DNA of 64,000 bases from an uncultured Acidobacteriota bacterium (GTDB taxonomy: Bacteria > Acidobacteriota > UBA6911 > RPQK01 > JAPXNP01): positions 192,001 to 256,000 of the forward strand of contig CAVZRV010000035.1 in NCBI GenBank assembly GCA_963777605.1. Direction: 5' to 3'. The position numbers and the translations under genes were made by a program. Every line of letters starts with the position of its first letter. Position 1 is the first letter of the stretch. The notes beneath the pieces are model-generated. The model saw only the letters and a program-made list of their open reading frames with translations. It was not told the origin of the DNA and searched no databases. Positions 19,978 to 24,208 of this stretch are shown here, one piece after another.

Positions 19978-20005
19978 TTGCTTTGGCAACGTCATTATGT
20001 ATAAT
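19978..20005 (+). promoter_or_regulatory. Putative sigma70 promoter of the arg operon
   Basis: TTGCTT (19978-19983), 16-bp spacer, perfect TATAAT (20000-20005) in an AT-rich patch. Confidence 0.7.
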
Positions 20006-20013
20006 TATGCACA
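19996..20013. promoter_or_regulatory. ARG box (ArgR operator)-like site overlapping the -10 element
   Basis: TATGTATAATTATGCACA matches the ArgR consensus TG(A/C)ATAA(T/A)(T/A)AT(G/T)CA with one mismatch; lies upstream of argC/argD/argB. Confidence 0.7.
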
Positions 20014-20129: not shown

Positions 20130-20147
20130 GTTGTATTTCCATGCATA
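20130..20147. promoter_or_regulatory. Second ARG box-like site
   Basis: GTTGTATTTCCATGCATA, core TGTAT-N4-ATGCA with the same half-sites as the first box; overlaps the ATG at 20141. Confidence 0.5.
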
Positions 20148-21232
20148 TTCAAAGCGTTTCAAACCAGTATTCAATGCCTTCGACATCCAAAGCGGCAGGA
20201 GGGATTGTCCCGGATTTGGTGAGTTCCTGTGCAGGGACGCTGGACCTGGCATTTCCACTGAAAACGGCCGAGATCGCCAACCCGGGAGCGGGTGATGTCG
20301 TGCTTGCCAGGGTGGAAGAAGTCAACCCGGCCTACCCGGCCATGGAACTTCCCGATGGAACCGACATCATTCTCGAACCGGGGATGAAGATTGTCGGAGC
20401 GCTGGGTACGCGCAAGGCCCTTCACGGGTTTTCCGGTCGAATCCCCCACCCCCTTTTCATCGGGCAACACATCCAGTTGCTCAACAAGGGTGGAGTGATC
20501 GGCGAATGCACGGCCTTTCATCGGAACCTGGAATGGCCGACGCTGCTGACCTACCTCGGCACCGTCGTCGAGGGAGATCGTCCCGTCAACCTGCGTGACA
20601 GTGCGCTCCCCTTCGTTGACCGGGAATTGCCCAAGATCCCGTTGGTATTCGTTCTCGGGACCTGCATGAACTCGGGAAAGACAACCGTCTGCAAAACCAT
20701 CATTGACGGTTTCAGCAAGCGCGGCTACCACATCAACTCGGGCAAAGTGGCGGGTGTTGCATGTCGGCGTGATCTGAACGTGATGAAGCAATCGGGATCG
20801 AAGCGGGTGCTGAGTTTCCACGACTTCGGACTCCCCTCCAGCGCCGACGTTCCTTCGTTGGTGCCGGTCGCACGATCGATTGTCCACCATCTGGCCGAGC
20901 CAGAGCCCGATTTCATCGTCCTGGAGATGGGCGACGGAATCCTCGGCGGATACAACGTAGCGTCTTTGTTCGACGACAAGGAGTTCCTGAGCCGCCGGGC
21001 AGCCACGGTGATCTGTGCGAACGATCTCATGGGTACCTGGGGTGCGTTGGAATGGCTTCGGCAACACGACGTAGACACGGCCCACGAACCGATCCTGGTC
21101 TCGGGTCCGGTGACTGACAGCTGCGAAGGCGTCAAGTACATCGAAGACAACTGGGACGTCCAGGCCGCGAATCCATTCGACAGTTCCGGTAAGCTCTGCA
21201 GCTTCGTCCTGAAGAGCCTCCGGCCATGTTGA
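20141..21232 (+). CDS. DUF1611/DgcN-like P-loop protein, first gene of the arg operon (alternative start 20174)
   Basis: VLGTCMNSGKTT (Walker A-like, as in DUF1611 GT..GK), GKVAGVA, FHDFGLPSS, IVLEMGDGILG; overlaps the argC start. Confidence 0.7.
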   Translation: MHIQSVSNQYSMPSTSKAAGGIVPDLVSSCAGTLDLAFPLKTAEIANPGAGDVVLARVEEVNPAYPAMELPDGTDIILEPGMKIVGALGTRKALHGFSGRIPHPLFIGQHIQLLNKGGVIGECTAFHRNLEWPTLLTYLGTVVEGDRPVNLRDSALPFVDRELPKIPLVFVLGTCMNSGKTTVCKTIIDGFSKRGYHINSGKVAGVACRRDLNVMKQSGSKRVLSFHDFGLPSSADVPSLVPVARSIVHHLAEPEPDFIVLEMGDGILGGYNVASLFDDKEFLSRRAATVICANDLMGTWGALEWLRQHDVDTAHEPILVSGPVTDSCEGVKYIEDNWDVQAANPFDSSGKLCSFVLKSLRPC

Positions 21233-22236
21233 AAGTTGGAATTGCAGGCGGCTCAGGTTACGGTGGGCTGGAACTGATCAGCGTCCTGTTGCGGCACCCC
21301 GAGGTGGAGATTGTCTCAATCTCGTCTGAGCGGCACTCCGGGAAAGAGGTCTGCCAACTCTATCCCCACCTGCGGGGAATCGTTTCGCTGACGTTCTGTC
21401 CCCTGGAGGAAACAGTGGCGGCGGAGACCGACGTACTCTTCCTTGCCCTTCCTCACGGCGAGGCGATGAAGATCGCCCCAAAGGTCCCGGCTGGGAGAGC
21501 GCTGATCGATCTCAGTGGGGATTTTCGGATCAGCGACCCCGAAACCTTCGCAAAGTACTACGGCTTTCCGATGACCAGCGTCGCCGAGCAGTCCAAATTC
21601 GTTTACGGTCTCCCGGAAATCAACCGCGAGTCGATTCGCGGCAAGCGGCGCGTCGCCAACCCAGGCTGCTTCGCAACCGCCACCCTGCTGGCCCTGTTTC
21701 CCCTCTACCAGGAAGGCTGGGTTGAAGGTTCGGTCTACGTTGATTCAAAGACGGGCTCGTCCGGATCGGGTCGAACACCAAGCGACAAGACCCACCATCC
21801 CCGGCGTAGCCACGCCTTTTTTCCCTACAAGCCGTTCATCCACCAGCACGTCCCCGAGATGCGGCAGATCCTCGACAACCCCGGCAACCCGCTGATCTTC
21901 CAGGCTCACTCGACTCCGCTCGTCCGTGGTATCTTCGCCAGCCACTACATGCAGCTCAAACAACCGAAGACCGCAGCCCAAGTGGAGGACCTCTTCAGCG
22001 GCTACTACGGAGCCGAGCCGTTCATCCGCTGGGAACCAGGCAATCCCGATATCTGTAACGTCGAACACTCCAACTACGTGGATATTGCCGCAGCAACCGA
22101 TGGGGAACACCTGATCGTCTGGTCGGCTCTGGACAACCTCCAAAAGGGAGCGGCCGGACAGGCCGTTCAAAACATGAACATCATCTGCGGATTCGAGGAG
22201 ACTACCGCCCTCGAGCAGGCTCCGCTCTTCCCATAA
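21226..22236 (+). CDS. argC: N-acetyl-gamma-glutamyl-phosphate reductase
   Basis: GGSGYGG, FLALPHG, IDLSGDFR, YGLPE, ANPGCFAT, GSSGSG, HQHVPE, DNLQKGAAGQAVQNMN. Confidence 0.94.
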   Translation: MLKVGIAGGSGYGGLELISVLLRHPEVEIVSISSERHSGKEVCQLYPHLRGIVSLTFCPLEETVAAETDVLFLALPHGEAMKIAPKVPAGRALIDLSGDFRISDPETFAKYYGFPMTSVAEQSKFVYGLPEINRESIRGKRRVANPGCFATATLLALFPLYQEGWVEGSVYVDSKTGSSGSGRTPSDKTHHPRRSHAFFPYKPFIHQHVPEMRQILDNPGNPLIFQAHSTPLVRGIFASHYMQLKQPKTAAQVEDLFSGYYGAEPFIRWEPGNPDICNVEHSNYVDIAAATDGEHLIVWSALDNLQKGAAGQAVQNMNIICGFEETTALEQAPLFP

Positions 22237-22238
22237 CT

Positions 22239-23399
22239 ATGGACAACACTCAATACATTTCCATTAAGCAACTTGAAGACCGCTACCAGGTCAACACCTA
22301 TGCCAAGCTCCCCATCTTGATCGATCGGGGGGAGGGCTGTTTCGTTTTCGACCAGGACGGAAAACGCTACCTGGACCTCTATGCCGGGCATGCAGTAACT
22401 GCGACCGGGCACTGCCACCCGTCCGTGGTTGCCGCCATCCAGCGGCAAGCCTCCCAGTTGATCTTCTACTCCAACGCCACCTACAGCTCAACACGAAGCC
22501 TGGCCCTCGAGAAACTGATCGAATTGTCCCGCCCCTACCACCAGGCATTCCTGGTGAACTCCGGCGCCGAGGCCAACGAGAACGCCATCAAGCTCGCCCG
22601 CGCGTTGACCCGTCGACGGGAAGTCATTTCAACCGTCAACGCCTTTCACGGCCGGACCTACGGCAGCCTCTCCGCAACCGGCATCGAGAAATATCGCAAT
22701 TTCCTGAACACCCCCGTTCCCGGCCACCGCATCTTGCCCTTCGAAAAGGTTGCAGGGTCGGTTTCCGAGAAGACCGCCGCAGTATTGATCGAGCCAATTC
22801 AGAGCATGGGCGGGGTCGTCACGATCCCGATCTCCACGATCCAGGAGATCGCCCGCTCCTGCCAGGCGGCCGGGGCGCTGTTGATTTTCGACGAGATCCA
22901 GACTGGCGTCGGACGCACAGGCGGAACCTTCCTCTATTCCCAGAAACTCGACGTCGTTCCGGACCTGACCTCCCTGGCCAAGGGAATCGCTTCCGGCTAT
23001 CCGGCCGGGGCCGTTCTCATGACCGAGGAGATAGCGGGCCGGGTCAACCCGGGGGACCTGGGCACTACGTTCGGAGGGAATCCGCTGGCTTGCGCTGCCA
23101 TCCTTTCTACACTTCAGGTGATTCAGGAGGAAGGCCTTCTCGCCCAGGTTGATGACGTTTCCGGCTACCTCCGGGATTCTCTCGCGGAACTTCCGGTCAT
23201 AGAGGAACTGCGGGGCGACGGTCTCCTGTTGGGGATCCGGTTCAAAGGGTTGACGGCCAAGGAGGCACAGAAGCGTCTCCTGGAGGCCTTCATTCTTACC
23301 GGGACCTCCTACGATCCGTCCGTACTTCGCCTGATGCCTCCTCTGACCCTTGGCCGGGACGAGGCCGACATCTTCATTGAGGCGGTGAGATCGCTATGA
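22239..23399 (+). CDS. argD: Acetylornithine aminotransferase
   Basis: YLDLYAGHAV, NSGAEANE, FHGRT, FDEIQTGVGRTG, SLAKG, TTFGGNP; operon context. Confidence 0.88.
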   Translation: MDNTQYISIKQLEDRYQVNTYAKLPILIDRGEGCFVFDQDGKRYLDLYAGHAVTATGHCHPSVVAAIQRQASQLIFYSNATYSSTRSLALEKLIELSRPYHQAFLVNSGAEANENAIKLARALTRRREVISTVNAFHGRTYGSLSATGIEKYRNFLNTPVPGHRILPFEKVAGSVSEKTAAVLIEPIQSMGGVVTIPISTIQEIARSCQAAGALLIFDEIQTGVGRTGGTFLYSQKLDVVPDLTSLAKGIASGYPAGAVLMTEEIAGRVNPGDLGTTFGGNPLACAAILSTLQVIQEEGLLAQVDDVSGYLRDSLAELPVIEELRGDGLLLGIRFKGLTAKEAQKRLLEAFILTGTSYDPSVLRLMPPLTLGRDEADIFIEAVRSL

Positions 23400-24208
23400 A
23401 GCTCATCCTGAAGCTGAGTGGGAAGGTACTGGAGGAGGCCGGCCTGCGCCGGTCGCTTGGACAACAGATCGCCCAGCTCAATCGGGCCGGGCATCAACTG
23501 CTCCTGGTGCACGGAGGCGGAAAGCAGCTGTCGGACTTCTGCCGGGACACTGGGTTACCGGTTGTCCAGGTCCAGGGCCGGCGGGTAACCGACGAGCGCA
23601 CTCTGGAAGCAGCCAAGAAGGTCTTTGGTGCGGTCAATGCGGACCTCACAGTGAGTCTGCTGGCCGAAGGAGTCCCCGCTGTCGGGATCTCCGCTTTCGA
23701 CGGGTTCCTGACCCGGAGCAGACGGCGGCCACCGCTGGCTCTGCAAGTAGATGATCGAGTCGAGACGGTCGATTTCGGCCTCGTTGGAGAACTTCAGTCG
23801 GTGGATCGGAGCCTGGTGGATGCGCTTTGGGCGGCCGGCTATGTGCCGGTGGTCAGCTGCCTCTGCAGTTCTCCCAACGGGCAGATTCTCAATATCAATG
23901 CCGACACACTCTCTACCGAACTGTCGGTGGCGCTCGCCGCAGACCGACTGGTTGCGGTTTCCGACGTCGGTGGAATCTACCTGGACCCGGCGCGCGCCGA
24001 AACCCGCATCGAACACCTCGGCCTGGTAGAGGCGCGAAAGCTGTTGCGGGAAGGCGTCTTCCTGGATGGGATGATCCCCAAGGTCGAAAACGCCATCCGC
24101 CTGATCGAGCAGGGCGTCGATAATTTCCAGGTGCTGAGCGGACTCCAGGAAGGGGCGTTGGCCAACTGCCTGGATGGGCAAACCGGGACGCTCCTGTCAC
24201 GGGAGTAA
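23396..24208 (+). CDS. argB: Acetylglutamate kinase
   Basis: LKLSG, VHGGG, GRRVTD, GLVG, NINAD, GMIPKV. Confidence 0.9.
   Translation: MKLILKLSGKVLEEAGLRRSLGQQIAQLNRAGHQLLLVHGGGKQLSDFCRDTGLPVVQVQGRRVTDERTLEAAKKVFGAVNADLTVSLLAEGVPAVGISAFDGFLTRSRRRPPLALQVDDRVETVDFGLVGELQSVDRSLVDALWAAGYVPVVSCLCSSPNGQILNINADTLSTELSVALAADRLVAVSDVGGIYLDPARAETRIEHLGLVEARKLLREGVFLDGMIPKVENAIRLIEQGVDNFQVLSGLQEGALANCLDGQTGTLLSRE

Follow-up and report, generated by a model that had tools for sequence, protein, structure and literature searches.

The window analysed here, a stretch of 64,000 nucleotides (64 kb) from an uncultured Acidobacteriota bacterium (assembly GCA_963777605.1, contig CAVZRV010000035.1, positions 192,001 to 256,000), carries an arginine operon headed by a gene that we call X, which on balance is predicted to encode an N-acyl-L-glutamate synthase built on a fold other than GNAT. 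The list of open reading frames (ORFs) gives the order X-argC-argD-argB, all on the plus strand, with a 7-nt overlap between X and argC, a 2-nt spacing between argC and argD, and a 4-nt overlap between argD and argB; X is translationally coupled to the three genes behind it. An earlier interpretation of this DNA from its letters alone (the sequence-only reading) had placed a 363-residue protein first in such an operon and had pointed out two motifs in it, GTCMNSGKTT and LEMGDGILG, and both are there (residues 173–182 and 261–269). Because the flanking genes are of other kinds (gltX, an unnamed 252-residue ORF, pdxJ and rsmI upstream; mreB, mreC, a 175-residue ORF and mrdA downstream), X-argC-argD-argB forms a self-contained unit. 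These flanks contain no epimerase or racemase gene, which bears out the earlier remark that no DgcA-like epimerase is adjacent. The same reading had proposed X as a new P-loop replacement for ArgA; gene order and phylogenetic profile support the replacement, but the role is already in print as a prediction and is not new: Price et al. ('GapMind 2026', bioRxiv 10.1101/2024.10.14.618325, version 2026-07-02) predicted the Steroidobacter protein ACG33_RS14135 to be an alternative N-succinylglutamate synthase.

The acylating step of arginine synthesis has no recognised enzyme in the window's genome, which is 96.7% complete. Genome-wide, the ArgJ family PF01960 has no match, the ArgA model TIGR01890 matches only the operon's own argB, with no ArgA GNAT domain, and there is no PRK07922-type match to NF005921, which we take to be the model of the short mycobacterial synthase; the absence of argA and argJ that had been noted for the window thus extends to the whole genome. 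The vertebrate-type NAT domain PF04768 also gave no match in the genome, a result that is uninformative since the control matched in no genome either. A LysW-carrier pathway was considered and rejected: the genome has no lysW, and argB and argC pass the arginine equivalog cut-offs. The genome has argG, argH and argR, and an ordinary argF (TIGR00658, 388 bits, cut-off 280.85) that adjoins an ornithine aminotransferase gene; it has no ArgF'. It encodes several M20 deacylases of the ArgE/DapE family, one of them over the TIGR01910 cut-off (228.8 versus 217.6 bits), and no ArgE over that of TIGR01892 (best 217.6 versus 297.7 bits). With ArgJ, ArgA, the PRK07922-type synthase and LysW absent, and deacylases, argF, argG and argH present, the acylating step is the clearest unfilled one.

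The placement of X is shared by its relatives. A scan of one genome per species yielded 584 of them, and the best 80 loci were kept; these represent the closest relatives, almost all from Acidobacteriota, and not a sample of the whole family. With two loci dropped at contig ends, argC lies directly 3' of X on the same strand in 77 of the 78 evaluable loci, the exception (locus L036) having a RimK-type ligase gene in its place; argD follows in 70 of these best loci and argB in 62.

The distribution of X across the phylum is complementary to that of ArgJ. We searched 401 Acidobacteriota genomes for X, ArgJ, ArgA and argC, counting X matches at E ≤ 1e-20 and calling those at E ≤ 1e-91 strong. X was found in 118 genomes (103 strong, 15 weak), ArgJ in 120, ArgA over its cut-off in 6 and argC in 251. 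All 103 strong-X genomes have argC, and ArgJ and over-cut-off ArgA each occur in none of them (0/103). Seen from the 251 argC genomes, 103 hold X, 118 hold ArgJ, none holds both and 30 hold neither, two of the last (G273 and G313) having fragmentary X. Weak matches represent a different subfamily, because 9 of the 15 genomes with these alone lack argC and 4 have ArgJ. Three unpublished genomes are included (G049 and G024 with strong X, G152 with weak X and ArgJ); without them the counts of 103, 118 and 251 become 101, 117 and 248, with the same pattern. The genomes are related and not independent, so all these counts are descriptive and carry no probability. Among the genomes with named loci that carry X, including that of Pyrinomonas methylaliphatogenes K22, ArgJ and over-cut-off ArgA were each found in 0 of 6. 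Both the clustering with argB, argC and argD and the anti-correlation with argJ and argA that the sequence-only reading had anticipated are therefore found.

That the exclusion is chiefly with ArgJ (0/103 versus 118 genomes) brings in another possibility, since ArgJ also performs the deacetylating transfer: X might supply this other function, removing the acyl group late from N-acylornithine or N-acylcitrulline or transferring it, possibly to glutamate, while an unrecognised GNAT acylates first. Such a role would suit the absence of an over-cut-off ArgE from the window's genome and, as described in the preprint, from the Steroidobacter genome too (bioRxiv 10.1101/2024.10.14.618325). We consider it improbable, given the several M20 deacylases of the genome, the plausible argE genes that the preprint mentions near some homologues (bioRxiv 10.1101/2024.10.14.618325), and the lack of any such amide hydrolysis or transfer among the solved relatives in the structural matches listed; moreover, a transferase alone could not prime the cycle.

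Protein X belongs to a large, well-conserved family that has no name. No Pfam family matches it at E ≤ 0.01 (at E ≤ 10 there are just MobB, 0.074, and AAA_26, 0.27), NCBIfam gives no meaningful match, and there is no sequence relative in the PDB, where searches with the single sequence or with its profile returned only P-loop snippets. With a word index, 371 proteins were retrieved for X; those that carry a name are all Acidobacteriota entries called 'hypothetical protein'. Among representatives clustered at 50% identity, the profile matched 1842 clusters at E ≤ 1e-3, of which 503 reached E ≤ 1e-30; relatives are present also in Pseudomonadota, Gemmatimonadota and records labelled Bryobacterales.

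The structural model (AlphaFold2; mean predicted local distance difference test, pLDDT, 91.2; predicted template-modelling score 0.88) divides X into two domains (Table 1). Invariant columns were read over the 39 sequences of an alignment of the X family (profile A1): besides the P-loop residues listed in the table, D211 and T325/D326 are invariant, and R91 and the NKGGxxGxC motif of the N-terminal domain are invariant or nearly so. This domain has no significant counterpart among solved structures (best VIA Z 3.7, best Foldseek E 0.38), and we infer that it binds the substrate.

Table 1. Features of the X-argC-argD-argB locus (window coordinates; residue numbers refer to protein X).
Feature	Position	Strand	Evidence and remarks
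Gene X	20141..21232	+	363-aa ORF; two-domain, predicted N-acyl-L-glutamate synthase; no Pfam/NCBIfam family
argC	21226..22236	+	TIGR01850, 365.7 bits (cut-off 233.6)
argD-like class-III aminotransferase (N-acylornithine aminotransferase)	22239..23399	+	PF00202, E 2.5e-97; TIGR00707, 343 bits, under cut-off 410
argB, N-acylglutamate kinase	23396..24208	+	TIGR00761, 172.5 bits (cut-off 151.3)
ARG-box-like palindrome TATGTATAATTATGCACA	19996..20013		128 bp 5' of the X start codon
X N-terminal all-beta domain, aa 28-164	20222..20632	+	modelled alone, pLDDT 90.1; invariant R91, LLNKGGVIGxC motif
X C-terminal P-loop domain (SIMIBI, dethiobiotin-synthetase-like/DUF1611_C-like), aa 165-363	20633..21229	+	VIA and hhalign
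Walker A GTCMNSGKT, aa 173-181	20657..20683	+	G173, T174, M176, G179, K180, T181 invariant (39 sequences)
Invariant Lys202	20744..20746	+	HMMER alignment to 3fgn; invariant in profile A1
Walker-B-like LEMGDG, aa 261-266	20921..20938	+	E262, G264, D265, G266 invariant; aligns with DUF1611 EGQG

The C-terminal domain is a P-loop domain of SIMIBI type. With VIA-align over 48,161 chains, matches at the top of the ranking lie within about one Z unit of each other: the DUF1611 protein TM0796 (2g0t, Z 15.8), dethiobiotin synthetase (3of5, 15.2), CTP synthase (7dpt, 14.9), another DUF1611 protein (2obn, 14.7) and 'N-acetyltransferase DgcN' (7xrj, 14.5, with 183 residues aligned at a root-mean-square deviation, rmsd, of 3.2 Å). 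Other matches include a second dethiobiotin synthetase entry (1a82, 14.6) and formyl-tetrahydrofolate synthetase (12.6).

The sequence-only reading had made X a DUF1611/DgcN-like protein and had called for a profile and structure comparison with that family; the comparison gives a fold match in the C-terminal domain only, and the family assignment does not hold. PF07755, the DUF1611 family (gathering cut-off 25 bits), does not match X even at E ≤ 10, and its matches in 25 of the 39 X relatives are weak (best E 1.2e-5; 19 bits for the homologue in L036). When profile A1 was aligned by hhalign with 10 true DUF1611 proteins from Acidobacteriota genomes, the match (probability 73.7%, E 2.9e-5) covered residues 165–363 alone. 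Since some genomes (G124, G024, G089 and G101) encode a DUF1611 protein proper alongside X, the two are separate families. X is therefore not a member of DUF1611/DgcN; its C-terminal domain alone is remotely related. The accompanying statements on DgcN are borne out in part: the description as a glutamate N-acetyltransferase agrees with the title of 7XRJ and with the wording of the preprint (bioRxiv 10.1101/2024.10.14.618325).

One residue sets X apart from DUF1611. The invariant Lys202 aligns by HMMER with the Lys of the CKP motif in Mycobacterium tuberculosis dethiobiotin synthetase (3fgn), Lys37, a residue that acts in phosphoryl transfer; in the hhalign alignment DUF1611 has a gap, or no Lys, at this position. 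With Lys202 kept, X may depend on ATP. It could then be a ligase of the dethiobiotin synthetase or formyl-tetrahydrofolate synthetase kind that turns free succinate or acetate into an acyl phosphate and passes the acyl group to the amino group of glutamate, with no acyl-CoA involved. The invariance of the Walker A and Walker-B-like motifs would suit such an enzyme, as would the closeness of the dethiobiotin synthetase and DUF1611 scores. If true, this would give the first step of arginine synthesis a new reaction, carried out by a new combination of an unmatched beta-domain with a P-loop domain. We nevertheless regard it as unlikely: the ADP moiety of CoA is likewise a ligand of P-loops, and an acetyltransferase activity is ascribed to DgcN, the only characterised relative that acts on glutamate.

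A Foldseek search with the complete model retrieved generic SIMIBI P-loop proteins, with HypB best among the PDB matches (E 1.5e-6), SRP GTPases and ParA/MinD ATPases as well and no DUF1611 protein among the matches listed. These matches would suit X as an accessory NTPase, a metallochaperone or a regulator of the HypB/UreG/MeaB type that serves an arginine enzyme, and five congeneric genomes that keep the operon without X (described below) are what one would see for a dispensable helper. Yet the HypB-type matches span the generic P-loop core only, with Z below those of DUF1611 and dethiobiotin synthetase, the P-loop domain shows by eye no NKxD guanine-specificity motif, the extra N-terminal domain is very strongly conserved, and strict placement in arginine operons with complementarity to ArgJ suits an enzyme better. 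We give this alternative very little weight.

Combining these findings, we favour, with moderate confidence, the prediction that X is a non-GNAT N-acyl-L-glutamate synthase. Its anatomy, its coupling, its arginine context, its exclusion with ArgJ and ArgA and its fold relations are observed, and the reaction is predicted from them; among solved relatives, a reaction on glutamate is known for DUF1611/DgcN only. Further support comes from the ARG-box-like site upstream and from the GapMind prediction, which was reached independently for a protein with the same hallmarks (bioRxiv 10.1101/2024.10.14.618325). In the proposed mechanism X would N-acylate L-glutamate as the first step of ornithine and arginine synthesis, standing in for the GNAT enzyme ArgA and the bifunctional ArgJ, and the acylated product would pass to the co-translated ArgB, ArgC and ArgD. 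The nucleotide part of acyl-CoA would be bound in the P-loop domain, as is assumed for the distant relative DgcN, or alternatively ATP would be bound there, while R91, N115, C123, K202, D211 and T325/D326, in the N-terminal domain and between the domains, would hold the glutamate.

Several observations weigh against this prediction. The link to DgcN is remote and confined to the P-loop domain, with an hhalign probability of just 73.7%, CTP synthase and dethiobiotin synthetase tie with DUF1611/DgcN in VIA score, and no DUF1611 entry came up when PDB sequences were searched with the profile. Short GNAT synthases are hard to recognise, and one may hide among the GNATs of the genome. The exclusion with ArgJ fits a replacement of its deacetylating transfer as well, and kinship among the genomes means that the counts overstate the statistical support. 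Furthermore, 28 to 30 of the 251 argC genomes are without X, ArgJ and ArgA; in G264, which bears X, a stand-alone ORF matches the ArgA GNAT domain (163 bits, under the ArgA cut-off), and two more X-bearing genomes give faint matches to this domain. In the genus g82, represented in the sample by 8 X-bearing and 5 X-less genomes, the 5 latter (98% complete) keep argR-argC-argD-argF'-argB with X simply missing, and they lack any X-family match (E ≤ 1e-3) as well as ArgJ and the ArgA GNAT domain; either another, unrecognised acylglutamate route therefore exists there, or X is dispensable. Lastly, the preprint itself says that its prediction awaits testing (bioRxiv 10.1101/2024.10.14.618325).

A GNAT encoded two genes upstream of argR in an X-less genome (locus L096) was considered as a substitute for X and rejected: it is RimI (TIGR01575, 88.9 versus 86.4 bits), and it is present in each of 5 X-less congeners and in 5 of 5 that carry X. 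In one X-less g82 genome, a 180-residue ORF that lacks a Pfam or NCBIfam match lies on the minus strand between argF' and argB (L092:2390-2935) and is a possible candidate for the replacement of X there.

Only at the palindrome TATGTATAATTATGCACA does the window come within 2 mismatches of the 18-nt ARG-box consensus, and this site scores as two matches since it can be read on both strands; the chance expectation for the window is 0.10 matches, and at least two matches occurred in 3 of 100 shuffles. The whole genome has 10 distinct ARG-box-like places within the same limit. Just ahead of argH, contig C29 encodes an ArgR homologue (C29:354417-354896). The palindrome TATGTATAATTATGCACA is probably an ArgR operator, through which ArgR would repress the operon. 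The sequence-only reading had spoken of ARG-box-like sites in the plural; a site is present, but it is one and not several. A simple scan upstream of the operon showed no sigma-70-like promoter. With 1 mismatch, the genome's closest match to the ARG box is on contig C29 at 354668-354685, inside the stretch that aligns with ArgR and about 300 bp upstream of argH; it may be an internal operator, or the start of argR may be miscalled.

The identity of the acyl group can be approached through the carbamoyltransferases that accompany X. The Blastocatellia order is argR-argG-X-argC-argD-argF'-argB; in P. methylaliphatogenes K22 the same series stands next to argH on the minus strand, and its ArgF' scores 436.8 bits with the model for N-acetylornithine carbamoyltransferase, over the cut-off of 288. 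At the position equivalent to residue 92 of the Xanthomonas enzyme, the 61 ArgF' proteins encoded beside X have Thr (57, K22 among them), Pro (2), Ser (1) or Ala (1), and never Glu. The preprint cites this position as deciding between acetyl and succinyl, and Thr is absent from the substitutions that it cites as tested (bioRxiv 10.1101/2024.10.14.618325). The acyl group of the Blastocatellia relatives is therefore no more than probably succinyl.

The window's own lineage differs. Within its taxonomic order, ArgF' exceeds the cut-off in 12 of 41 sampled genomes, and in its family all 6 genomes, the window's included, reach only the score level of ordinary ornithine carbamoyltransferase (OTC). 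With an ordinary OTC and no ArgF', the acyl group is therefore removed at the ornithine stage; it may be either acetyl or succinyl in this family, to which the deduction of succinyl is not transferable from the ArgF'-bearing relatives. On contig C7 (about 884250-886430; L082:240-2421), the gene directly upstream of argF encodes an ornithine--oxo-acid aminotransferase (TIGR01885, 558.6 bits, cut-off 378.4), and the pair could provide a second route, free of acylation, that leads to ornithine and citrulline by way of glutamate semialdehyde as the starting compound.

Some arginine clusters of Blastocatellia contain further ORFs: one of 442–448 residues, with no Pfam or NCBIfam match, between argD and argF' (L015:12256-13593, L017:12147-13475 and L069:11812-13158), and one of 120–124 residues with a tRNA_bind domain between argC and argD. 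At one locus (L113; G313:C4:80000-94000), argR-argG-X-argC-argD-argF'-argB-argH match only as many short pieces per gene, so that the operon is decayed or the assembly is rich in indel errors.

Homologues of X also occur outside arginine operons. The one in L036 (7980-10245), 38% identical to X, adjoins a RimK-family glutamate ligase; those in L109–L111 are 30–31% identical and lie beside a divergent YheC/D ATP-grasp gene (L109:7240-9853), an M20 peptidase (L110:7256-9513) and an ABC exporter (L111:7284-10057). Weak paralogues are 26–31% identical, and the ones inspected adjoin ATP-grasp ligases, an M20 peptidase or an ABC exporter. These settings are suggestive, although not decisive, of a wider role of the family in the modification of amino acids or peptides.

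Many free-living bacteria are annotated without the first step of arginine synthesis, and 103 of the 251 argC-bearing Acidobacteriota genomes in our sample (41%) would rely on X for it. If its activity is confirmed, X would give a textbook step a further solution, structurally unrelated and outside GNAT, and would fill a gap that metabolic reconstructions of soil bacteria commonly have; it would also raise the question of the acyl donor and the acyl group. The window's family (X with OTC) and Blastocatellia (X with ArgF') offer two natural variants for comparison, and P. methylaliphatogenes K22 is a cultured carrier of X. What the present analysis adds to the published prediction is the two-domain anatomy with its unmatched N-terminal domain, the lysine of dethiobiotin synthetase type, the partition of the phylum between X and ArgJ, the OTC-type variant in the window's family and, as a caution, the X-less congeners.

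Compared with known systems, X has the C-terminal P-loop fold in common with DUF1611/DgcN (PF07755; 7XRJ, 2G0T and 2OBN; VIA Z 14.5–15.8 over about 180 residues, rmsd 3.0–3.2 Å), whereas the N-terminal domain of DUF1611 does not align with the all-beta domain of X, and the motifs GTD...GK and EGQG of DUF1611 stand against GTC...GK and EMGDG in X. DgcN acts on the amino group of glutamate, according to the title of 7XRJ and the preprint (bioRxiv 10.1101/2024.10.14.618325). A racemase neighbour, taken here as a hallmark of DgcN, does not adjoin X. Dethiobiotin synthetase (BioD) has the same P-loop fold (3of5 and 1a82), and its Walker A context GT..x.GKT and downstream Lys align with those of X, but BioD is a single-domain protein in a biotin context and X has an additional N-terminal domain of 160 residues and stands in an arginine operon; the dethiobiotin synthetase family PF13500 matches X at E 0.27 (11.5 bits, under the cut-off of 27). 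ArgA, ArgJ and the short GNAT synthases occupy the same predicted place in the pathway with a complementary distribution; they have the GNAT or the ArgJ fold, in contrast to the beta-domain and P-loop of X, and no sequence similarity to it. In the literature on N-acetylglutamate synthases, no P-loop synthase is described among the matches listed, and the DUF1611 matches are unrelated.

The closest parallel is ACG33_RS14135. The preprint relates it by very distant homology to 7XRJ, which it calls a D-glutamate acetyltransferase with reference to Yu et al. 2023, places it virtually always in arginine operons and never with ArgA, and does not count it among its confirmed enzymes; its main text names no Acidobacteriota (0 occurrences; bioRxiv 10.1101/2024.10.14.618325). 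No named Steroidobacter protein appears among the listed cluster names of the X family or among the matches of one of its Pseudomonadota members. As far as the preprint describes it, the parallel appears to extend to every hallmark, the one in ArgF' being seen in the relatives of X. Both ACG33_RS14135 and the X family are hypothetical proteins inside arginine operons with argB, argC, argD, argF', argG, argH and argR, neither occurs with ArgA, and both show a remote structural likeness to 7XRJ; in the relatives of X, the neighbouring ArgF' also lacks Glu92. Compared by description only, the two thus look like members of the same family, within which ACG33_RS14135 has an ArgF' neighbour and the window's family pairs X with an ordinary OTC.

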